This document shows, piece by piece, positions 6,242 to 17,534 of a stretch of 64,000 bases of DNA (its first letter is position 1; each line of letters begins with the position of its first letter). The DNA comes from Thermodesulfobacteriota bacterium. Its GTDB lineage: Bacteria; Desulfobacterota; Desulfarculia; JACQYL01. The stretch covers positions 2,368,001 to 2,432,000 of the forward strand of contig CAXXLZ010000002.1 of assembly GCA_963675595.2 (NCBI GenBank), in the 5' to 3' direction. Under the pieces are notes generated by a model. That model was not told the origin of the DNA. It ran no database searches and was given only the letters and a program-made list of their open reading frames with translations. A program made the translations under genes and the position numbers.

Positions 6242-6257
6242 TGGCACGGAACTTGTT
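6242..6257 (+). promoter_or_regulatory. Putative sigma54 (-24/-12) promoter of the psr/phs operon
   Basis: TGGCACG-GAAC-TTGTT (GG-N10-GT variant); IHF-like TATCAATAAGATA about 30 nt upstream; divergent from a sigma54 activator. Confidence 0.6.
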
Positions 6258-6389: not shown

Positions 6390-6722
6390 ATGAAAAAGAT
6401 TCTGTCTCTGATTCTGGGCATTGTCCTGTTCCTAACGTCCGTCGGATTGGTATTCGCTTACGGCGACGGCAATTACCGCAAGGGCAAATACCTTTTCCGC
6501 AAGAATTGCCGCGCCTGCCATACGGAGGCGGGACAGGCCAAGGAGTTGAGCCCTCTGAGCAAAACCATGGCCGAATGGGAACAGGCGTTCAAACCCGAAA
6601 CCGCGGCCGGCTATCCCTGCAAGGATGAATGGGCGAAGCTTTCCGAAAGCGACCTCAACGACATCTACACCTATTTATATAAGCATGCCGCCGACTCTGC
6701 GACTCCGGCCAAGTGTAAGTAA
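6390..6722 (+). CDS. Periplasmic monoheme cytochrome c
   Basis: AAGGAGG RBS, Sec signal peptide MKKILSLILG..., single CRACH motif. Confidence 0.88.
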   Translation: MKKILSLILGIVLFLTSVGLVFAYGDGNYRKGKYLFRKNCRACHTEAGQAKELSPLSKTMAEWEQAFKPETAAGYPCKDEWAKLSESDLNDIYTYLYKHAADSATPAKCK

Positions 6723-6790
6723 GCTCCGTTACCGCTTTTCAATGAAACCATCGGAAGTTCAACCATTCCATGAACCTGAGGAAGACGACC

Positions 6791-8980
6791 ATGGGGACGA
6801 ATCAACCGCTCACACTTTCCCGCAGAAACTTCCTTAAAGTCGCGGGCGCCGCGGCTGCGGCCGGTACCGGGTTGATTCGGCCGAATTCAGCGAATTCGGC
6901 GACGCCCGAGGCGCCGAGTTTCGAGAGCAAATACTCGGTGTGCGACATGTGTTTCAACAAATGCAGTCTCATCGCCCGAGTGCGAAACGGGGTCGTGGAG
7001 AAGCTCGACCCCAACCCCAAATTCCACAAGTCCCGAGGGATGCTCTGCGCCCGCGGCAACGCCGGAGTCAGGCAGCTCTACGATCCGGACCGCCTGAAAT
7101 CTCCCCTTCTCCGAAAGGGAGAACGGGGCGAGGGAAAGTGGCAAAGGCTCACCTGGGACCAGGCTCTCGACCATGCCGCGGAACAGCTGCTCAAGATCGG
7201 TGAACAATACACGCGTTGCGGAGTCATGTTCATGGCCGGCGCGGACATGCAGTCCACTTTTGTCCATCGGTTCGCGGACGTCTACGGTTCGTACAATAAG
7301 CTGTCACATGAGTCCATGTGCCTGATCGCCGGAACACGGGGTTTTTTGGACACCTTCGGTGAAGTGCCCATTCCCGACATGCAGTACACGAAATACGTGG
7401 TCATGTCCGGAGCGAACCGCTTCGAAGCTTTGGTCACTCCCGACAGCATGGACCTTATGAAAGCCATGGCCGGCGGCTGCAAGCTGGTGGTGCTGGACCC
7501 CCGTTATACCAAAACGGCGGCCCTGGCCCATGAATACTTCCCCGTACGTCCCGGCACGGATATGGCCGTCATGCTGGCTTTTGCTCACGTGCTGATCACT
7601 GAGGGCCTGTACGATCGGGAATTCGTGGAACAGAAATGCTACGGCATCGAACAACTCGCCGAACACGTCAAGCAGTACTCCCCCGAATGGGCCGAGAAGG
7701 AATGCGAAATCCCGGCAGAGGCCATTCGCCGTATTGCCCGGGAAATGGCGGCCGCGGCTCCGCAAGCCATGATCTATCCCGGCCGTCGCAGCTCGAATTA
7801 CCGCAATTCCACTCAAATCCGACGGGCCTACGCCATTGTCAACGCGCTCCTGGGCAACTGGGATCGCCCCGGAGGTCTTACGGCGGCGAGGATGGTGGGG
7901 CTGAAGAGCCCCGGCTACGACGCACCGTTCTATGAATCCAATCCCTTCGAGCGCATCGACCACGGCGTGGCCAAATTGATGTTCGAGGAAGAAGGGTCTT
8001 TAAAAATCGCCCGCGACGCCGTGCTCCGAGAGGAGCCCTATCCGGTCAAGGGTTTCTTCACCTACAAGACCAACCCTATGCAAACGGCCGCCAACCGTTC
8101 CAAGACCATTGAAATGATCCGTAAACTGGATTTCATGTGCACGGTGGATATCGTCATGAGCGATACGGCGTGGATGGCGGACCTGGTGCTGCCGAGTCAG
8201 GCCGCTTTCGAACGCACGGACCCCTGTTCCGCCCAACAAGGTTCCTCGGCCTGCGCCTGTGTGGTCATGCGCGACCCGGTGGTGTCCGACCCCCTGTTTG
8301 AGTCCAAGCCGGTGTTCTGGATGATGAAGGAACTGGCCGACAGGCTGGACCTGGGCGAATATTTCGATCTTTCCATCGAAGAATACCGGAAAGAACAACT
8401 GCGGGACCTGCCCGGAGCCATGGACGCCTTGATCAACGACGGCGTTTACTATAACCCGAGCAAGCTCTACGGTGTTTACGAAGGCAGGATATTCAAAACC
8501 AAGACCCACAAGATCGAGCTGTTCAACGAAACCTATCAGCAAATGGGCTTGGACCCCCTGCCGGTGTACGAATCTCCGACCGCCCCACCGAAGAACCAAT
8601 TCCGCATGGTTGTCGGCAGAACGGCGACCATCACCCAAAGCAGCAGCCAGAACAACAGCCTGCTCCAGGAATTCGAGCCCGAAAACGATCTCTGGATTCA
8701 CCCCGACTCCGCCGCCGCCCTGGGCATTCACGACGGGGACCCTGTAACCGTTTCCGGCAAGGTCGGCGAGCAACGCATCCGTGCGCGCGTCACCCGACGC
8801 ACACGTCCGGATACGGTCTACATGCACACGGGCTACGGCGTGTTGAGCAAAGGCTTGAGCCGGTTGCAGGGTAAGGGCGCCTGCATCGCCCAAGTGCTCG
8901 AAGACGGTCTCGACGAGATCTCCGGCAACATGGCCATGCACGAGACCTTTGTGAAGATAACCAAGGAAAAGAAATCATGA
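6791..8980 (+). CDS. Molybdopterin oxidoreductase catalytic subunit, polysulfide/thiosulfate reductase (PsrA/PhsA) family
   Basis: Tat motif SRRNFLK; CDMCFNKC...C 4Fe-4S; HESMC Mo-ligand Cys; C-terminal molybdopterin-dinucleotide domain; B and C subunits downstream. Confidence 0.9.
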   Translation: MGTNQPLTLSRRNFLKVAGAAAAAGTGLIRPNSANSATPEAPSFESKYSVCDMCFNKCSLIARVRNGVVEKLDPNPKFHKSRGMLCARGNAGVRQLYDPDRLKSPLLRKGERGEGKWQRLTWDQALDHAAEQLLKIGEQYTRCGVMFMAGADMQSTFVHRFADVYGSYNKLSHESMCLIAGTRGFLDTFGEVPIPDMQYTKYVVMSGANRFEALVTPDSMDLMKAMAGGCKLVVLDPRYTKTAALAHEYFPVRPGTDMAVMLAFAHVLITEGLYDREFVEQKCYGIEQLAEHVKQYSPEWAEKECEIPAEAIRRIAREMAAAAPQAMIYPGRRSSNYRNSTQIRRAYAIVNALLGNWDRPGGLTAARMVGLKSPGYDAPFYESNPFERIDHGVAKLMFEEEGSLKIARDAVLREEPYPVKGFFTYKTNPMQTAANRSKTIEMIRKLDFMCTVDIVMSDTAWMADLVLPSQAAFERTDPCSAQQGSSACACVVMRDPVVSDPLFESKPVFWMMKELADRLDLGEYFDLSIEEYRKEQLRDLPGAMDALINDGVYYNPSKLYGVYEGRIFKTKTHKIELFNETYQQMGLDPLPVYESPTAPPKNQFRMVVGRTATITQSSSQNNSLLQEFEPENDLWIHPDSAAALGIHDGDPVTVSGKVGEQRIRARVTRRTRPDTVYMHTGYGVLSKGLSRLQGKGACIAQVLEDGLDEISGNMAMHETFVKITKEKKS

Positions 8981-9726
8981 AGACGCAGCTGGCAATGGTA
9001 ATCGACGCATCCAGGTGCTGGGACTGCAAAGCCTGCATGGCCGCCTGCAAAACGGCCAACAAGGTCCCCGAAGGGCAGTGGCGGAACTGGATCAAGAGCG
9101 TGGACCTGGACCTGGTGGAGCCCGGAGGAGGGCGGCTGATCTTCCAGCCGGGCAACTGCATGCACTGCAGCGAGCCTCTTTGTATCAAGGCTTGCCCCAC
9201 GGGCGCCACCTATCGAAACGAAGCCGACGGCACCGTCCTCATCAATCGGGAACTTTGCATCGGCTGCGGGCAGTGCCTGCCGGCCTGCCCTTACGGCGCA
9301 AGATTCAGACACGCGGAACTCAGGGTCGCGGACAAATGCGACTTCTGCGCCGAACGCAGGGCCGCCGGCCTGGAGCCCGCCTGCGTAGCCACCTGCCCAA
9401 CCAAGGCGCGTGCCTTTGGAAATCTTGCAGATCCGGAGAGCGAAGTCGCCCGCCTGCTCAAACGGAATGAGTCCGTGCAACTGGTTCAGGCCAAAAGCCC
9501 GACCGACCCCAACATTCGTTATCTCGGAAATCCCGGACGGACCGATTGGCCCGTGGAGGCGCAAATGCCCTCGGCATTCGGGTTCTGGAAGAACGTGGCG
9601 GGCCCGGTGGTCAAGATCTTCGTCGGATTTTCCGCTTTGGGCTTCGGCGCCATGCTGGCCAAGCAACTTTTCCTCCCCGATCATCCCGAGGAAGACCGCC
9701 AACCTGAGGAGAAACGCCATGAATAA
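8977..9726 (+). CDS. 4x[4Fe-4S] electron-transfer subunit (PsrB/PhsB-like) with C-terminal TM anchor
   Basis: CWDCKAC, CMHCSEPLC..CP, CIGCGQC..CP, KCDFC..C..CP; ATGA overlap with subunit A. Confidence 0.93.
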   Translation: MKTQLAMVIDASRCWDCKACMAACKTANKVPEGQWRNWIKSVDLDLVEPGGGRLIFQPGNCMHCSEPLCIKACPTGATYRNEADGTVLINRELCIGCGQCLPACPYGARFRHAELRVADKCDFCAERRAAGLEPACVATCPTKARAFGNLADPESEVARLLKRNESVQLVQAKSPTDPNIRYLGNPGRTDWPVEAQMPSAFGFWKNVAGPVVKIFVGFSALGFGAMLAKQLFLPDHPEEDRQPEEKRHE

Positions 9727-10453
9727 CCGAATGATCCGACGTCACGGACCGGGGGGCATTTTCATCCACTGGTTCAACGCGGTTTGCTGGTTTTTCCTCC
9801 TGGCCACCGGTCTGGGTCTCATCAAGAACCCGGACCTTCAGCCCTTGGGCCCATGGTGGCCCAACTTCATGAACTCTTTGTTCGGCGGCGGGGAAACTCT
9901 TTTGGCCGTCCATTGGGGCACCGGCGCGGTCTGGGCTGGCATCTGGCTGATCTTCATCCTGGCGGGTCTGCTTCGATACACGGCCCCGTTTCTACGACAA
10001 ATCTTCTCCTACCACCTTTCCAGGGACCTGGAGTGGATGATCAAGAAGCCCTTTCAAATGATCCTGGGAACCAAAGCCATGGCCGCCCTGGTTCGCCCTT
10101 TGGGTTGGGATGGAAACATGCCCGAACAGGGATTCTACAACGTCGGGCAGAAAGCGGCCGCGGTCGCCATGGCGGCCGGAGGCCTTGTCCTTGTGATCAC
10201 AGGCGTCATCATGACCCTATCCAAGTACTTCCTTTCCCCGAATCAGGTCCCCATGGTTCAGTGGAGCATCACCATCCACTTCATCGCGGCCGGCCTCACT
10301 TTCGGAGTGCTTCTGATCCACATCTATATGGCGGCGGTAAGCCGTGAGGAAAGGCCTGCGTTCATTTCCATGTTTACCGGGACGGTTCCGGAAGATTACG
10401 CGGCCCACCACCACGGTCTTTGGTACGAAGAAGTCAAAAACAGCGGTAAGTAA
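9719..10453 (+). CDS. Cytochrome b membrane anchor (PhsC/FdnI-like)
   Basis: RRH..IHWFNA, YNVGQK, IHF/IHIY heme-b His, SMFTGTV..YAAHHH; start ATG 9719. Confidence 0.9.
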   Translation: MNNRMIRRHGPGGIFIHWFNAVCWFFLLATGLGLIKNPDLQPLGPWWPNFMNSLFGGGETLLAVHWGTGAVWAGIWLIFILAGLLRYTAPFLRQIFSYHLSRDLEWMIKKPFQMILGTKAMAALVRPLGWDGNMPEQGFYNVGQKAAAVAMAAGGLVLVITGVIMTLSKYFLSPNQVPMVQWSITIHFIAAGLTFGVLLIHIYMAAVSREERPAFISMFTGTVPEDYAAHHHGLWYEEVKNSGK

Positions 10454-10488
10454 TAAAACCAAGGCTCAAAACAAGGAGGATGCATTCC

Positions 10489-11319
10489 ATGAAGCAGATC
10501 AAACTCTTGGCCGTTTTCATGCTCATAACGGTATTCCTGCTCCCCGTCACGGCCCTTCAGGCCGCGGAGGAAAAGAGCAGGGAACCGGCCTACAAGCCGT
10601 TCCACACCATTGTGGAAGCCGATTTCGTCAAGGAAATCGTGGACCAGAAAATCCCCGGTATCCTCATCGATGCACGGCCCAAACTCAAGAAATACGATGA
10701 GGGTCACATTCCCGGCGCGCTCAGCGTACCCACCACGCGATTTGAAACCATGAAGGGCTATCTGCCGACGGACAAGAACGCCCTGATCGTCTACTACTGT
10801 GAGGGGGTGAAATGCGCTCTGAGCCACAAGAGCGCCTACAAGGCCGAAGAGCTGGGCTACACCAACGTGAAGGTCTACGCCAAGGGATACCCCGAGTGGA
10901 AGGCCCTGTACGGTGAAGGCGCTCAAGGCCTCGCAGCCGCTCCCAAAGCGGCCGTTGATCCCGGCAAAAAGAAGTTCAAAGCCGGCAAGGCCGAAGGCAC
11001 CATGGATCAGGCCGTATTCGAGGAACTCCTCAAGAATGATCCCGACGCCGTGCTGCTGGTGGATGTGCGCGATCCTCACGAATTCAAGAAAGGCGCCTTC
11101 AAAAACAGCGTAAACATTCCCGTGGACGAGCTGGAGAAGCGCCTCGCCACCTGGAAGCCGGAAAAGCCCGTGGTCTATGTGTGCGGAACCGGAGCCCGCA
11201 GCGGTGAAGCCTATTACATGACATTGGACAAGCGCCCGGACATGATCGAAGTCTACTACGTGGACGGAGAGATCGTATGGGATCAGGACGGCGGACACAA
11301 GATGACGCCGCCCAAATAA
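10489..11319 (+). CDS. Periplasmic tandem-domain rhodanese (sulfurtransferase)
   Basis: Signal peptide; IDARP..GHIPGA..YYCEGVKC and VDVR..YVCGTGARS active-site loops. Confidence 0.92.
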   Translation: MKQIKLLAVFMLITVFLLPVTALQAAEEKSREPAYKPFHTIVEADFVKEIVDQKIPGILIDARPKLKKYDEGHIPGALSVPTTRFETMKGYLPTDKNALIVYYCEGVKCALSHKSAYKAEELGYTNVKVYAKGYPEWKALYGEGAQGLAAAPKAAVDPGKKKFKAGKAEGTMDQAVFEELLKNDPDAVLLVDVRDPHEFKKGAFKNSVNIPVDELEKRLATWKPEKPVVYVCGTGARSGEAYYMTLDKRPDMIEVYYVDGEIVWDQDGGHKMTPPK

Positions 11320-11364: not shown

Positions 11365-11394
11365 GCGGGGTTTCCCTTCACGGGGAGGCCCCGC
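11365..11394 (+). other. GC-rich stem-loop between the two rhodanese genes
   Basis: GCGGGGTTTCCCT-TCAC-GGGGAGGCCCCGC 13-bp stem with G-U pairs; no U-tract. Confidence 0.5.
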
Positions 11395-11420: not shown

Positions 11421-12464
11421 ATGAGGTCGGCAATTCCCGGAGTGGGTCGGTTCATGATCGGTTGGCTTCTGCTGACGGCGCTGCTTTTTCCGGCCGTCCG
11501 CTTAAGTGCCTCCGACCTTCCCCCGTCGGGCTCCGGGGACCTTCCGGTATGGGGGTCCCAGGTACTGGCCAAAGCAGCGGAATGCGGATACGGACTCATC
11601 ACGCCGCCCGAACTCGAATCACTCATTCATTCGGGCAAAGATTTCGTTCTACTGGACGTCCGACCACCTTATGAGTTCAGCCAGGGCCACCTGCCCGGGG
11701 CCGTCAACCTCGAATTTCACTTGGGCCATTTACACGAGCTCGATCCGGGTCGAAAAGAAGCGTTCGAAAAAATTCTCGGGCCCGACCCCCAACGCAACGT
11801 GGTGATTTACTGCCGAAGTTTCAGGTGACTGCGAAGCGAAGTGGCGGCTCGGTGGGCCGTGAAGCTCGGGTATGAAAACGTCTCCCAGTTCCCCTGGGGC
11901 TACCAGGGCTGGGTGGAAGCGCATTCCGGCAGAACGGGACCCGCTCCGGACACCCTGGGGCTCCGACCCGGCAACTACTTCCCCGCGTGCGGATTGACCG
12001 TTCTCGATGGGAAAAAAGATCGACCCTACCTGGGACTCGAAGCAAACGTGAAGTCCTTCGGCCTCAACGAAATCGGGAGCCCTTTCCTCCTGGTGGCCCT
12101 CTACAACGAACTCTGTTCCACCTGCCTCTCTCAGTTCCCCGTTTATGATTGCTTGTTCCAAGCCATCTCCAATGACCGGGAACTGAAGCCCCGCATCCGA
12201 TTCATCGGTTTGGGCGTGGAAAGCCTGAAACGGGAGGTGGCTAAATTCCGAAAGATGAAGGGGGTGGCCTTTCCCTTGTTCGCGGACGAACGCAGGGAGG
12301 TTTTCAACAGTGTGGGCCGGCCCTCCCTTCCCGTACTCTATCTGCTCAAAAAGGAGAGCTTCGGTCATCGCATACTCATGATCCACAAAGGCCCGGTGGA
12401 CGCCCCGGACCGATTTCTTTCCGCCGTCCGAGACTCGCTGCGTAAAGAAAGCTCGGGGCATTAA
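11421..12464 (+). CDS. Putative selenoprotein: signal peptide-rhodanese (CxxxxU)-thioredoxin-like (CxxC) fusion
   Basis: Two ORF-track ORFs are in one frame, separated only by TGA 11826-11828 inside the rhodanese active loop (VIYCRSFR*LRSEVAA); SECIS-like hairpin follows; C-terminal LCSTC thioredoxin-fold domain. Confidence 0.8.
11844..11860 (+). promoter_or_regulatory. Putative bacterial SECIS hairpin
   Basis: GCGGCTC-GGT-GGGCCGT stem-loop starting 15 nt after the in-frame TGA, with G at the start of the loop. Confidence 0.6.
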
Positions 12465-12489: not shown

Positions 12490-13113
12490 CTATTTGCCCA
12501 ACATCCGGGAACAAGTCTCCAGCAGACCCACGAGCATCTGGGCGGCCTCACCGTAAAAGGGCTCGGATTTCCCGCAAAGCAGGTCCCGCAAGCGGCCCGT
12601 CCAAGGCAGCAATTCGTCGGTGAGAAAAACACGGGCCTCGGCAAGAGCCGTAGGGTCCTCTCCGGTGAGGCCTTGCTCCAACAGAACGCCCAGGTATTCC
12701 AGCTCAAATGACAAATGGTCCGGAGGCGTTCCTTCCCGCCCGGCAAGTTCCAGTCCCCGCGCCCGAAAACGCTCCCGCATGCGCAAAGCCGCGGCGCCCA
12801 TGAGACGCCGATCCTCCTCGTAACAGGACTCGTACAGGTCCACGGCCGCGCCCCCCAGGTCGTTGACGAACAACCGGACGTAGACTTGCTCCAGAGCGTT
12901 TTCCAGCGCTTGAGCGTCGGGGAAGCCGTCGAGATAACGGATCAGGTCCCGCGCCGCGTCCGCGGAAGCCTCAGGCAGCAAAGACCGGACTTCCGCGATC
13001 TTGTCCCGAAAATGGTAGACCGACGGCCTTCCTCCGGTTTGGAGCGAGGGTCCCCAGAAGATCAACGCCGTCAGCGCGATGCCGTCCAGCAGCCGCTCCC
13101 ACTCTGATTGCAT
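12490..13113 (-). CDS. TorD/DmsD family molybdoenzyme maturation chaperone
   Basis: YVRLFV, LYESCY and PPDHLSFELEYL motifs. Confidence 0.9.
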   Translation of the reverse strand: MQSEWERLLDGIALTALIFWGPSLQTGGRPSVYHFRDKIAEVRSLLPEASADAARDLIRYLDGFPDAQALENALEQVYVRLFVNDLGGAAVDLYESCYEEDRRLMGAAALRMRERFRARGLELAGREGTPPDHLSFELEYLGVLLEQGLTGEDPTALAEARVFLTDELLPWTGRLRDLLCGKSEPFYGEAAQMLVGLLETCSRMLGK

Positions 13114-13345
13114 GATCCCTCCACGATTCAAATCGATTGGAATGGATCACTATATCCGTCGGGGAATCATTGTGTAAACGGGGAAAGGAGCCGCCGTCGT
13201 CATTCGCTGATGGGAGAATCGCCAGGGAAGCGTCTCCAAAAGGAACGTGGGGGGTTTTCCTCTGAAAACACCCCCACGAAATAACAGCCGACCTTGAATT
13301 TCGTTTCCGGTCGTAATCCACCGGGGAATCAACCCCGGGAAGGAA

Positions 13346-15460
13346 TCATTTGGAAGCCGCAACCTCACCTAACGGAAGCCGTTTGAAGCGGCCGCCCACC
13401 ACGATGGGATCGCCTTTGTAGCCCAGTTTTTCGAAGTCGATGTAATCGGTGGAGTTCACCAGGTCGAGCACGTCCCTGCCTTTGTAGTAGAGCTGTTTGA
13501 AATCCACTCCGGCGGAAGCCAGGGCCTTGAAGTCCACGTCCCGGTTGTCCTGGTGACAACGGTTGCACGTTTTCTCCCCGGTCAGGCTCTTGTGGCATTG
13601 CACGCAGGAAAGAGCACGTTCCTTGGGAACGATCTCGTGGTTCAGGCCCCAATACATCTTGGTTTCCACCCACTCGAATTCACCGCTGTAAGGCAGGCCC
13701 GCCGCCTCCATGCCGTCCTTCAGGGACTTCTGCCAATCCAACGTCTTCCAGTAGCCTCCGGGGCCGAAAAGATGCGGAGCCAGCAGGATCCGGTTTTTCG
13801 CATCGGCCGGCTGCTTTCCGGCCATGATCTTGAACGGGTAGATTTTCGATTTGGGATCGCGGATGTCGCCCACGGGTTCCGTGATGTTCACCACGCCCGA
13901 GTCGGGAATCCGGTCGCCCAGCAGTTGACGTTTCACCTTGCCGTTATACCAAGTGTACACGGGCTTCACGCTTTCCTTCCAGAGGAACTCCCCTTTCTTC
14001 CAGAAATAGTCGGGCATGCCGTATTTGTCTTTGTTCACTACCCGCTTCTTGTCGCCGGCCTTGGACCAATCCCACCAGGTCTTGGTCGGCTTGCATTTGG
14101 CATAGATGGGACTGTGACACGTGACGCAGGCCAATGTTTCCGCGTGGCGATTCAGGTGGTGGGAAAGCAGATTCCCGCTCACGTGCGCCGGAGCGGAGTG
14201 ACAATCCTCGCAGGACCGGCTTCCCTCGGCCACGGGAAGGGAGAGGCTTCTCCCGGATATCTTGTGATTCCGGGTCTTGTGGCAATCCCGGCACTGGAAG
14301 TCCAGACCGCCCATGTGAACGTCGCAATTCCTGGAAGGATAATAGAGTACTCCGTTCATATCGCCGTGCTTGACGGCGTCCCCGCCTCCTCCCTGGAAGT
14401 GGCAGTCGCCGCAGTTCTTCCTGGTGGGTTTGCCCACGCTTTTGGCGACCTTGACCAGGTCCACCTGAGGATACGGCATTCCGGCGTTGGGAGGCGATTT
14501 CCGATAGGTGAGGGTCCCATCGTGACACACCAGGCAGTCCATACGGGTCTTGTCGGAAAAGTCGAAGTTCGCGTCCTTCCAACCGTAACCCGCGTGGCAA
14601 CTGGTGCATCGAGGCCAATTGCTCGGCAAAGCGATGCAGAAGTTGTTGATGGTGTTGGTGGCTTTTCCCGATTGGACCTGTTTTTCATGCCCCACGGTAT
14701 ACGGGGAAGGGCCTTTCCACAACCAGTGGGCCGCGGTGAGCATGTCTTCCGCCTGCGCGTCGTGACACCTCAAACACTCCCGGGTGACCTGAGTCGGTTC
14801 CGGATTGTCCGGCAGTTGAACCAGCTTGGAATGATCGGGGACCTGTTTCCCATGGCAATCCGTGCATCCCACGGGACCTTGTCCCATCTCTTTGTGGCAC
14901 CCCATACATTGCCTGTGATAGGCCGCCTTCAATCCCACTCGACCCGGCACCTCGGGCTTGAAGGATTCCTGATGACAGGCGGCGCAACGCTCGGTTTCCG
15001 ACGCGGCCGGGTCATCCGGACGGTAGTGGTGGCACTTGAGACAATCCCCCACCTTGGCCGCATGCTTCTTGTGCATAAAGCGAACCGGCTCGTAGTCGTT
15101 TTCCTCTTTCTGAAGGATGGGACTGTTCAAATACAGATATCCATGTTTCAGCTCGTTCATGGTGGGAGCCTGATCGCCCAAACGTTGCTTCCGCTCCCAG
15201 GATGATTCCTCCTTTACGTCTTTCACGAAGGCCACCGGTTCGGCGGCACGCTGCTCGGCCTCCAACTGATCCACGGGGTGGAAAGGAGTGCCGTCGGGCA
15301 TCGTGGGTTCCGGAGGAGGAGGAAGTTCCATGGCGGGAGCGGCCTTGGCCGCCGCCTTCTCCTCTGCGGTGGTGCCGACCCCCTGAAACAGAAAGGCCAA
15401 GCCCACCAGGATCACCAGGATCGAACCGGCCAAAAGCCGGGATTTCTTTTTCATGCTCAT
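13346..15460 (-). CDS. Octaheme tetrathionate reductase (Otr)-family cytochrome extended to 13 CxxCH motifs
   Basis: N-terminal anchor; 4 CxxCH in a c3-like N-domain; Otr core (HWLW, INNFC, CTSCHAGYGW, GGGGDAVKHGD, WDWSKAG) with 8 CxxCH; one extra CNRCH. Confidence 0.88.
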   Translation of the reverse strand: MSMKKKSRLLAGSILVILVGLAFLFQGVGTTAEEKAAAKAAPAMELPPPPEPTMPDGTPFHPVDQLEAEQRAAEPVAFVKDVKEESSWERKQRLGDQAPTMNELKHGYLYLNSPILQKEENDYEPVRFMHKKHAAKVGDCLKCHHYRPDDPAASETERCAACHQESFKPEVPGRVGLKAAYHRQCMGCHKEMGQGPVGCTDCHGKQVPDHSKLVQLPDNPEPTQVTRECLRCHDAQAEDMLTAAHWLWKGPSPYTVGHEKQVQSGKATNTINNFCIALPSNWPRCTSCHAGYGWKDANFDFSDKTRMDCLVCHDGTLTYRKSPPNAGMPYPQVDLVKVAKSVGKPTRKNCGDCHFQGGGGDAVKHGDMNGVLYYPSRNCDVHMGGLDFQCRDCHKTRNHKISGRSLSLPVAEGSRSCEDCHSAPAHVSGNLLSHHLNRHAETLACVTCHSPIYAKCKPTKTWWDWSKAGDKKRVVNKDKYGMPDYFWKKGEFLWKESVKPVYTWYNGKVKRQLLGDRIPDSGVVNITEPVGDIRDPKSKIYPFKIMAGKQPADAKNRILLAPHLFGPGGYWKTLDWQKSLKDGMEAAGLPYSGEFEWVETKMYWGLNHEIVPKERALSCVQCHKSLTGEKTCNRCHQDNRDVDFKALASAGVDFKQLYYKGRDVLDLVNSTDYIDFEKLGYKGDPIVVGGRFKRLPLGEVAASK

Positions 15461-16626
15461 GCGTGTCCCTCCTCTTTACGCGCGCTGAGGACCGGCAAGT
15501 AGGTCACACATAGTCGGTAAAAGAAGATGATCGAGGACGTCAGCCCCAGAGTGATCGCGATTTCCCCCACGTGAGGATAATAAGGCCGCACCGAGTACGC
15601 GGGCTGAAATCCCACGATGAAGACGTTCATTCGATTCAGAGCCACACCGAGCACGATCAAGGTGCAGGCCACGAAAAGCCATTTTCTGGAACGCCTGACC
15701 CCCGGCATAAGCAGCATAATCCAGGGCAAGGCCACGCCTCCCAGCAATTCCACCAGAAAAGAATGACTCTGTGCCGACCCTTCCAGCAGATAAACGTACG
15801 CTTTTCTGACCACGAGATCGCCGATCTTCAGGGCCAGGTAGATGCCCAACAGGGCAATGGTGATGCGCGTCAGAGGCCTGAGGATCTCCATCTCGTCTTC
15901 AAGGCCGAAGGACCCGGTGGCCAAAGTGGTTTCAAACACCACCATGGGATACCCCACCGCGATGGCCGAGGTAAGAAACAGCAGCGGCAGTATGGGTGTA
16001 TACCAGAGGGGATGGACCTTGGTGGGCGCGATCAGCAGGAGCGAGCCGAGTCCGGACTGGTGCATGCAGGAGAGGACCACGCCCAAGATGATGAGGGCAG
16101 GCATGATCTTTTCCAGAAAATGACCGATCTTGTGCAAAATAGGGAGGACCTTCCCTACGCGTTCGGAAATCACCGGCAGGAACTCGAGGTGAAGCACCGT
16201 GGTGTACACCATGACGCACATGGCTACCTCGAAGAGCACCGAATTGGGCTGCCAGTAGAATATGGGATGCCAGACCGCCCAGTACCGACCGATGTCGAAA
16301 AACAACCCCACGGCCACGAAGGTGTACCCCAGCATGGCGGTGAGCAGCGCCGGACGAGTCACCCCCTCGTACCGACGGCGCCCGAGTATCTGTACCAGCG
16401 CCGCGGTGGTGAATCCGCCGGCCGCCAGAGCCACACCGGTAGCCACATCGAAACCGATCCAAAGACCCCACGGATAGTAGTTGTCCAGGTTGGTTACGGC
16501 TCCCAAGCCGCCCACTAAACGGGCGATAATGAAAAGGAGGCCCAACAACATGAACGCGAACAGCAACTGTGTGCCCGGAGTCCAGAAACGAGCCTCCAGG
16601 GGACGTGGTGAACCATGGGCATCCAT
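15457..16626 (-). CDS. NrfD/HybB-family quinone-interacting membrane subunit
   Basis: YPWGLWIGFDV..GVALAAGGF, DIGRYW, SVLFEVAMC, LSCMHQSGLGSL, PLWYTP motifs; start ATG 16626. Confidence 0.92.
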   Translation of the reverse strand: MDAHGSPRPLEARFWTPGTQLLFAFMLLGLLFIIARLVGGLGAVTNLDNYYPWGLWIGFDVATGVALAAGGFTTAALVQILGRRRYEGVTRPALLTAMLGYTFVAVGLFFDIGRYWAVWHPIFYWQPNSVLFEVAMCVMVYTTVLHLEFLPVISERVGKVLPILHKIGHFLEKIMPALIILGVVLSCMHQSGLGSLLLIAPTKVHPLWYTPILPLLFLTSAIAVGYPMVVFETTLATGSFGLEDEMEILRPLTRITIALLGIYLALKIGDLVVRKAYVYLLEGSAQSHSFLVELLGGVALPWIMLLMPGVRRSRKWLFVACTLIVLGVALNRMNVFIVGFQPAYSVRPYYPHVGEIAITLGLTSSIIFFYRLCVTYLPVLSARKEEGHA

Positions 16627-17534
16627 CACTCTCCTCCATTCCTTTCCTTCCGATGATTGACCCACATGAAACCGGCCAATACCGCATACAGGCTCGCCGG
16701 GGCCCACATATAGCTGAAGATGCCGTGCTGGATGGTCTCCGTCAGTTTGGGCATGGGTTTGGCGGGTACCTTTTGAAATCCCACCTTTTCGAAGGGAACC
16801 CCGGACAGGTACATCCACGAAGTCCCACCGGCCTCGAATTCGCCGTATATCGCGTCCACATATCGTCCGGGATCCCGACGGATCTTTTCATGAGCCAGTT
16901 CGAGAAGCCGGGCCCGTGGTCCGAACCGGATGGCCTCCACGGGGCATGCGGCCGCGCATCCGGGCTTTCCCCCATCCTTGACGATGCGGTCGAAGCAAAA
17001 GGTGCACTTCCTGACCTGAGGCGCCAGGGCCTCGTGGTATTCATAAGCCGGTATCTGGAACGGACAGGCCACCAGACAGTAGCGACAACCGATGCATTTG
17101 GACGCATCGTAGTGGACCGGGCCGTAGTCCTTTTTGGTCAGCGCCCCCACGATGCAGGCCGAAACACACGCGGGTTCGAGACAATGCATGCACTGCACTT
17201 TGACGAAAGTAGGAACAAGCTGATTCCTCTCGTCCACCCGTCCCGGATACCACCGGTTCACCACCGTATAAGCGCCCACGTCCGGACGCCGTTTTTCATC
17301 CAGGACCCTGGGATCGTCAAAAGGGATCGCCGGTTCGGGAAGCCCGTTCACTTGGTTACACGCCTGTTCACATTTGCGACATCCTACGCAGACCGTCAGA
17401 TCGACCAGGCATCCATAAGCCCCGCCCGCCGGGTCGTCGGAAACGACTGCGGGAAAAGCGGCGGACGGACTCAGCGCCCAAGTCGTACCGCTCAAACCCA
17501 CAAATCTCAAAAATGCTCTACGATCCATACCCAT
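16626..17534 (-). CDS. Tat-exported 4Fe-4S ferredoxin subunit (HybA/HmcB-like)
   Basis: MDRRAFL Tat signal; CVGCRKC, CMHCLEPAC, CIGCRYC, KCTFC; YGEFEAGGTS; C-terminal TM. Confidence 0.92.
   Translation of the reverse strand: MGMDRRAFLRFVGLSGTTWALSPSAAFPAVVSDDPAGGAYGCLVDLTVCVGCRKCEQACNQVNGLPEPAIPFDDPRVLDEKRRPDVGAYTVVNRWYPGRVDERNQLVPTFVKVQCMHCLEPACVSACIVGALTKKDYGPVHYDASKCIGCRYCLVACPFQIPAYEYHEALAPQVRKCTFCFDRIVKDGGKPGCAAACPVEAIRFGPRARLLELAHEKIRRDPGRYVDAIYGEFEAGGTSWMYLSGVPFEKVGFQKVPAKPMPKLTETIQHGIFSYMWAPASLYAVLAGFMWVNHRKERNGGE

Follow-up and report, generated by a model that had tools for sequence, protein, structure and literature searches.

A predicted periplasmic rhodanese-thioredoxin selenoprotein encoded beside a Psr/Phs-like enzyme in Desulfobacterota

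Selenocysteine (Sec)-containing rhodaneses have been predicted as families since 2005, and five rhodanese forms are among the 119 prokaryotic selenoprotein families in Table 1 of a 2026 review, none of the Sec-rhodaneses being experimentally verified in that catalogue (PMC13188914). Form 1 (PF00581; representative WP_010941598.1) is listed with the motif UxxS, while form 5, TsoB (NF045694), is a rhodanese/DsbD fusion-like selenoprotein with the motif UxxxxU (PMC13188914). In rhodanese domains, as summarized in PMC8533005, the active-site loop comprises six residues, with the catalytic Cys first and usually Arg, Thr or Ser last. There is also functional precedent for coupling the fold to thioredoxin, which a rhodanese can use as sulfur acceptor: TSTD1 hands thiosulfate sulfur to thioredoxin (PMC11957799). 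Neither a rhodanese-ResA fusion nor a link between a Sec-rhodanese and Psr/Phs enzymes is listed among the 119 families in the table of PMC13188914, and the accessible portions of PMC9312934, PMC1976440, PMC13326102 and PMC12998232 hold no description of a rhodanese-ResA selenoprotein. Within the portions of the literature searched, TsoB, reportedly defined by Haft and Tolstoy 2025, was named only in the 2026 catalogue, and a search for Sec rhodaneses together with thiosulfate reductase and TlpA found nothing closer.

The gene described here lies in a 64,000-nucleotide window (the whole stretch of DNA analysed, from contig CAXXLZ010000002.1 of assembly GCA_963675595.2), where one frame translates into 347 residues interrupted by a single in-frame TGA (Table 1). 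The sequence around this codon is VVIYCRSFR-U-LRSEVAARWAVKLGYENVSQFPWGYQGW, and its translation bears out the original prediction, made from the DNA letters, that the TGA falls within a rhodanese catalytic loop (YCRSFR-U-LRS); the upstream neighbouring rhodanese indeed carries the YCEGVKCALS with which that loop had been compared. The rhodanese domain, which had been said to continue normally past the TGA, is matched by PF00581 on both sides of it (67.5 bits against a gathering cut-off of 22.2). Gene calling with table 11 cuts the frame as had been anticipated, one ORF ending at 11828 and a second, of 207 residues, starting with GTG at 11841, and the N- and C-terminal halves stand as separate protein-database entries (P0032 and P0002). 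The product is predicted to be exported to the periplasm because a hydrophobic N-terminal stretch is present, as it is in all 28 sequences examined (Kyte-Doolittle 12-mer of at least 2.0); no lipobox was seen in the N-terminal leader. In an AlphaFold2 model built from a 25-row alignment, with Cys in place of Sec (mean pLDDT 85.5, pTM 0.65), both domains are well formed and the linker between them is of low confidence (pLDDT below 50 at residues 174-178).

Table 1. Features of the selenoprotein gene and its operon (window coordinates)
Feature	Position	Strand	Basis or detail
Possible sigma-54 -24/-12 site, imperfect	6242..6255	+	Motif scan; chance expectation 0.4 per window, weak alone
Small monohaem cytochrome c, first operon gene	6390..6722	+	Pfam; related loci
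PsrA/PhsA-like molybdopterin subunit, Tat-exported	6770..8980	+	NCBIfam PhsA 541 bits; PDB 2vpw E 1.7e-123; TAT signal
PsrB/PhsB-type Fe-S subunit	8977..9726	+	Pfam, NCBIfam
Cytochrome b membrane anchor, FdnI/PhsC type	9719..10453	+	PF01292, TIGR01583
Tandem two-domain rhodanese, N-terminal hydrophobic leader, CxxxxC in domain 1	10480..11319	+	Pfam; 25/28 related loci
G+C-rich 13-bp perfect hairpin without U tract, between tandem rhodanese and selenoprotein gene	11365..11394	+	Sequence; terminator scan did not call it
Selenoprotein gene, 347 aa: signal peptide, CxxxxU rhodanese, ResA/TlpA-like CxxC domain	11421..12464	+	Translation, alignment, Pfam, AlphaFold2 model
Predicted Sec-type signal peptide: basic n-region, hydrophobic core	11421..11510	+	Sequence; cleavage site approximate
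Rhodanese domain, residues 61-166, closest to TsoB-type rhodanese	11601..11918	+	PF00581 E 1.6e-18; NF045694 E 3e-25 on residues 47-167
Cys131, classical rhodanese active-site Cys position	11811..11813	+	Alignment to solved rhodaneses; ends strand 126-130 in model
In-frame TGA, Sec136	11826..11828	+	Translation, ortholog alignments, independent contigs
Predicted bacterial SECIS hairpin gcggctc-GGU-gggccgu	11844..11860	+	7-bp stem, GGU loop 22 nt after UGA, -9.3 kcal/mol
Thioredoxin-fold domain, ResA/TlpA/DsbE type	11955..12455	+	Foldseek top matches ResA; VIA-align Z 16.7, rmsd 2.3 A, 140 aligned, DsbE-like 3gl3; ResA profile match E 2e-8
C232-x-x-C235 motif	12114..12125	+	36/37 distinct orthologs; at start of helix 233-237
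Pro304, thioredoxin-fold cis-proline position (inferred from ResA alignment)	12330..12332	+	Invariant in alignments A1, A2; aligns with ResA LPT
TorD/DmsD-type chaperone, convergent	12490..13131	-	Pfam, NCBIfam; 20/28 related loci

Among described selenoproteins, TsoB is the best NCBIfam match, and the two share a rhodanese subfamily and the pairing of a Sec-rhodanese with a CxxC thioredoxin domain; the TsoB-like protein of the same genome is 36% identical over 119 residues, and Sec136 aligns with its second Sec. The window protein nevertheless scores 88.3 bits against the TsoB cut-off of 805, has no DsbD membrane domain, carries one Sec (CxxxxU) in place of two (UxxxxU), lies in another neighbourhood, and has a ResA-type thioredoxin domain to which that of TsoB shows no significant similarity. 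By analogy, its architecture resembles TsoB minus the membrane DsbD module. Form 1 shares the domain and the motif, here U-L-R-S, but its catalogue entry, with which the comparison was made by listed motif, gives no thioredoxin fusion or Psr/Phs context (PMC13188914); in a homology-based database the protein could end up under form 1 with its fusion unrecorded. Form 3 (NF041203, CxU) is excluded by score (15.9 bits vs 115) and by motif, and the rhodanese-thioredoxin protein stays below the cut-off of every NCBIfam model. Outside the selenoproteins, the nearest functional comparison is Sud (1qxn), which we take to be a periplasmic polysulfide-sulfur transferase serving Psr: it is likewise an exported rhodanese tied to polysulfide reductase, and matches in sequence (E 6e-6), but is a single-domain, single-Cys protein without the two-residue loop insertion, Sec or thioredoxin domain described below. 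TSTD1 (6bev) is both a sequence and a fold match, but the TSTD1-thioredoxin couple consists of two separate intracellular proteins with a single catalytic Cys and no Sec. Taken together, the Sec site is of a known kind, and the rhodanese-ResA architecture and the fixed Psr/Phs partnership appear new; the family gives the Sec-rhodanese class a fixed enzymatic partner and natural Sec/Cys pairs.

On comparative grounds, the TGA almost certainly encodes selenocysteine within one conserved gene. The genome (98% complete) has the full Sec machinery whose presence the original prediction had made a point to check, namely selA, selB, selD and a tRNA-Sec with anticodon UCA, all above curated cut-offs, and its selD itself contains an in-frame TGA. 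All 16 full-length homologs from a first protein search (local identity 43-50%) carry Cys at position 136; the search also gave 8 C-terminal halves, the window's own not counted. The alternation of Cys and TGA expected of homologs was found at the DNA level as well: among 28 related loci from genomes and metagenomes, a few of them near-duplicates, the 27 that cover codon 136 have TGA (15) or TGC (12) and nothing else. In a short-protein search, all 23 N-half matches, the window's own included, stop at the residue just before 136, and a wider profile search, at the protein level, found 38 of the best 150 representatives to be N-terminal fragments ending right before the Sec position, which exposes a systematic annotation error. 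A misread TGC or TGT had also been considered; contigs from runs of two other studies retain the TGA, which rules out sequencing error as its source, and in one other-study strain none of 13 differences in 201 nt falls in the TGA or in 11835-11872.

The distribution of the two codons suggests, from the alignments and tree, repeated Sec/Cys switches in the family. In a midpoint-rooted tree that places the window's sequence on a long branch, two well-supported nodes join TGA sequences with Cys clades as sisters (locus L048 at one, loci L041 and L043 at the other). Loss of the Sec machinery was considered as the origin of the Cys forms and rejected: selA and a TGA-containing selD are present in each of the 12 relatives tested, of which 8 have the Cys form and 4 the TGA form. 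Since all eight Cys-form genomes retain the Sec system, selenium is not essential to the rhodanese-thioredoxin protein. That the TGA is instead a true stop, in a pseudogene or between two separate genes, is barely credible, for while the GTG-initiated downstream ORF and three TGA orthologs without the loop GG discussed below could be cited for it, the break would sever the rhodanese active-site loop, the site is Cys or TGA in 27 of 27 loci with TGA recurring at several places in the tree, and the frame past the TGA is open and conserved, with a SECIS signature and the Sec machinery present.

A SECIS-like hairpin with a G-starting loop had been proposed downstream of the TGA, and one was found that conforms to the bacterial consensus as coded in our own script from the legend to Fig. 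2A of PMC13188914 (G-starting loop 16-37 nt after the UGA, stem of 4-16 bp, folding energy of -7.5 kcal/mol or lower). Of the distinct downstream sequences, 12 of 15 with TGA but 0 of 10 with TGC have a hairpin at 21-22 nt with GG in its loop, a comparison among kin that are not independent, so that kinship inflates any test of it. The energy filter is also passed by 7 of the 10 TGC orthologs, most of which form a stem at this place, and folding energy was discarded as SECIS evidence, being no better than that of shuffled sequences (z -0.22 to +0.62); it is the loop GG, not folding energy, that discriminates TGA from TGC sequences. Random genomic TGAs are followed by a passing hairpin with G[G/U] in 161 of 8999 cases (1.8%). 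The three TGA orthologs without a GG-loop hairpin are L041, L043 and L048, in two of which a change of LRSG to LRGG gives rise to a hairpin nearer the UGA, at a distance of about 10 nt; a non-canonical SECIS or a recent switch is possible in these three, and a comparison of the SelD hairpins of their genomes for a lineage-specific SECIS gave no clear pattern. In the window's own genome, a similar hairpin at 19-22 nt accompanies SelD and three other Sec rhodaneses. The latter (G000:C2:2112288-2112650 on the minus strand, C1:758365-758628 on the plus strand and C1:1450561-1450854 on the minus strand) comprise one TsoB-like rhodanese-DsbD-thioredoxin protein with UxxxxU and two multi-domain proteins with CxxxxU, and in all three the UGA is followed at 21-22 nt by a hairpin with a GG loop.

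As aligned to solved rhodaneses, Sec136 is not at the classical rhodanese Cys position, which is that of Cys131. The loop C-R-S-F-R-U contains a two-residue insertion relative to those structures, with Sec as its sixth residue and inside the insertion, and thus departs from the classical single-Cys sulfurtransferase loop of the GlpE/PspE/Sud type; in the model, Cys131 lies at the end of its strand and residue 136 caps helix 137-148. All 37 distinct close orthologs have Cys or Sec at position 136, and 36 of them retain Cys131; the first count is partly the product of selection, as the search pattern required C or U, although an unconstrained pattern also gave only C or U. Nine full-length representatives of more distant clusters, counted without P0131 (a differently built rhodanese-TlpA fusion lacking the +5 Cys), all have Cys at 136, while position 131 is Asp in four; CxxC is kept in eight. 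The classical Cys131 is therefore, judging from these alignments, a dispensable cysteine in distant members, and position 136 is likely the working nucleophile, with 131 an optional resolving residue, because 131 becomes Asp where 136 stays Cys. One single-domain relative, P0080, has Trp at position 136 in its protein entry.

The fused CxxC thioredoxin-like domain of the original prediction was recovered, by fold matches to ResA, DsbE and TlpA, with C232xxC235 as its motif. With thioredoxin fold, CxxC and conserved proline it qualifies as ResA/TlpA-like, and it resembles the ResA/TlpA/DsbE thiol-disulfide reductases in fold (Z about 16-17, rmsd 2.3-2.9 A), in having CxxC at a helix start and in the proline. 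It differs from them in sequence (14-20% identity; below all Pfam and NCBIfam cut-offs, with 19-21 bits vs 170 for NF002854 and 15-16 vs 26 for PF00578 and PF08534), in the change of their WC motif to [LM]C in the window family, and in its placement behind a rhodanese, with the leader as the only membrane anchor. The companion claim, that the rhodanese has its own thiol-redox domain, holds for this protein but not as an obligatory feature of the family: CxxC is lost in P0018 and P0183, four single-domain representatives (P0079, P0081, P0086 and P0111) are without the thioredoxin domain, and the same operon slot in genome G369 holds a rhodanese-only Cys version. Because of that slot, the rhodanese domain is, by comparison of sequences, regarded as the constant part and the thioredoxin domain as usual but not obligatory; natural loss of the classical Cys and of the thioredoxin domain thus both occur within the family. 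A TlpA-like domain with the sequence DRAYLG is also present in three exported-looking proteins of the same genome (G000:C2:2034457, C2:3501238 and C2:2710646), two of which have a C-terminal extension with CDLCH; one of these two lies upstream of phosphate-ABC-transporter-like genes, by translation.

The genes from cytochrome c through the tandem rhodanese to the selenoprotein gene, which closes the operon, are separated by 47, -4, -8, 26 and 101 nt. Wherever a related locus extends 6.5 kb or more upstream (19 loci), cytochrome c, psrA, psrB and the cytochrome b gene precede the gene, and PsrA is 67-74% identical to that of the window in every one of the 12 genomes, out of 60 relatives, that have a rhodanese-thioredoxin gene, in agreement with the proposed association with a Psr/Phs enzyme. 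The molybdoenzyme subunit falls short of the PhsA cut-off (694 bits for NF012032), but since PhsA is still its best family and 2vpw its best PDB match, the enzyme is predicted to work like Psr/Phs, with a substrate that the family does not assign. Six sister-clade operons whose PsrA is 60-66% identical have no rhodanese-thioredoxin gene in the 17 kb fetched, and their PsrA copies lie behind an Fe-S/NrfD/octaheme module without cytochrome b; the rhodanese(-thioredoxin) gene thus goes with the cytochrome b-anchored PsrA clade. In 14 of 19 orthologous operons the cytochrome c gene is preceded by a canonical sigma-54 site, a sigma-70 promoter and terminator scan gave nothing above chance, and the hairpin between the last two genes could tune the selenoprotein level or stabilise the upstream message.

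Several neighbouring arrangements deserve separate mention. A module of HybA-like Fe-S, NrfD, tetraheme plus octaheme and TorD genes converges on the operon in the window (12490-17534, minus strand), its octaheme protein scoring 529 bits on TIGR04315, above the cut-off. In the six sister-clade loci (L076-L081), the same Fe-S/NrfD/octaheme genes stand directly upstream of psrA-psrB in one operon, replacing the cytochrome b anchor, an arrangement that amounts to an octaheme tetrathionate-reductase-like plus Psr-like unit. One of these psr operons (L079:7805-8929, G055:C38) encodes a multi-domain rhodanese with two in-frame TGAs, in YCQGPTUKLS and YCQGFTUKLS, and the neighbouring rhodanese type is therefore also a selenoprotein in some genomes.

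With about even confidence, we read the product as a predicted periplasmic rhodanese-thioredoxin fusion that would act as a redox-active sulfurtransferase beside the Psr/Phs-like enzyme, binding and giving off sulfane sulfur, with Sec136 as nucleophile and the CxxC for reset. In such a mechanism, SelB would read the hairpin and Sec136 would be inserted, the product leaving through the Sec pathway. The selenolate of Sec136, or the thiolate in Cys forms, would attack an S-S bond, be it in polysulfide, in thiosulfate or in a partner protein that carries a persulfide, the tandem rhodanese for example; Cys131, where present, would resolve the adduct to a Cys131-Sec136 selenylsulfide, with sulfide released or sulfur handed on. 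The fused C232xxC235 domain would then re-reduce the rhodanese site, drawing electrons from a carrier of DsbD/CcdA type whose gene lies elsewhere. DsbD_TM genes are found in the window's genome (three matches) and in 12 of 12 relatives but also in 10 of 14 control genomes, and their presence therefore says little for this last step. There is a precedent for Sec as the S-S-cleaving residue in MccSep (PMC13510729). More tentatively, the protein could be a self-resetting periplasmic Sec-dependent persulfide/polysulfide reductase, its chemistry shifted five residues from the classical Cys to Sec, that together with the cytochrome b-anchored Psr/Phs clade would form an uncatalogued Se-dependent sulfur-respiration or disproportionation module of Desulfobacterota. 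For sulfate-reducing bacteria the family offers a further candidate step in periplasmic sulfur respiration, and were the reductase reading true, annotation pipelines would routinely cut the protein of a Se-dependent module in two.

Three other functions were weighed. The protein may, though this is rather unlikely, be a Sud-like carrier whose Sec-rhodanese domain concentrates polysulfide sulfur for the Mo site of PsrA, with the thioredoxin domain only resetting oxidised protein. The rhodanese-only versions, in the same operon slot (G369) and among the representatives, would fit such a role, as would the appearance of Sud itself among the sequence matches; yet 25 of 28 loci already have a tandem CxxxxC rhodanese for it, Sud shows a single Cys in the alignment and no residue opposite the Sec, it is the classical persulfide Cys that is lost in four of nine distant members, and the CxxC is retained in 36 of 37 close orthologs. 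It is distinctly improbable that we are dealing with a maturation or repair factor, one that would keep persulfides and disulfides off client cysteines (those of the apo-cytochrome c CxxCH and of the tandem rhodanese) where the periplasm is rich in polysulfide, in the way that ResA and CcmG serve apo-cytochromes. Such a role would suit a C-terminal domain nearest to ResA/DsbE/CcmG structures and an operon with cytochrome c in 19 of 19 complete loci, and thioredoxin has been called a depersulfidase in a title cited in PMC11957799; against it, the sister-clade operons with an octaheme cytochrome, and so with far more haem sites, are without the gene in the stretch fetched, and the domain that is always retained is the rhodanese, not the thioredoxin. 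Handling of selenium or another chalcogen or metalloid (selenite, polyselenide), TsoB-like or ExtH-like, instead of sulfur respiration is very unlikely: the TsoB rhodanese domain is the best NCBIfam match, the genome's TsoB lies near an arsenic-resistance-like cluster (by translation) and rhodaneses can hold Se as perselenide (PMC11957799), but the fixed partner is PsrA/PhsA-like at 541 bits, as against 183-192 for the selenate reductases YnfE/F and 169 for ArrA, and having Sec says nothing about Se as substrate.

The rhodanese-thioredoxin gene is rare across the phylum, phylum-wide searches giving 6 and 7 positives among 401 genomes (one of the 7 rhodanese-only), counts that are a lower bound with five candidates scored per genome. 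Viral contigs searched for the protein gave no match, and the named relatives that carry the family are Desulfobacterota, Desulfoferula mesophila and Salidesulfovibrio brasiliensis among them with Cys forms. Elsewhere in the window, an ATP synthase operon has, besides a single c subunit, a 324-residue protein that apparently consists of four fused c-subunit hairpins (656-1630 and 307-561, both on the minus strand).
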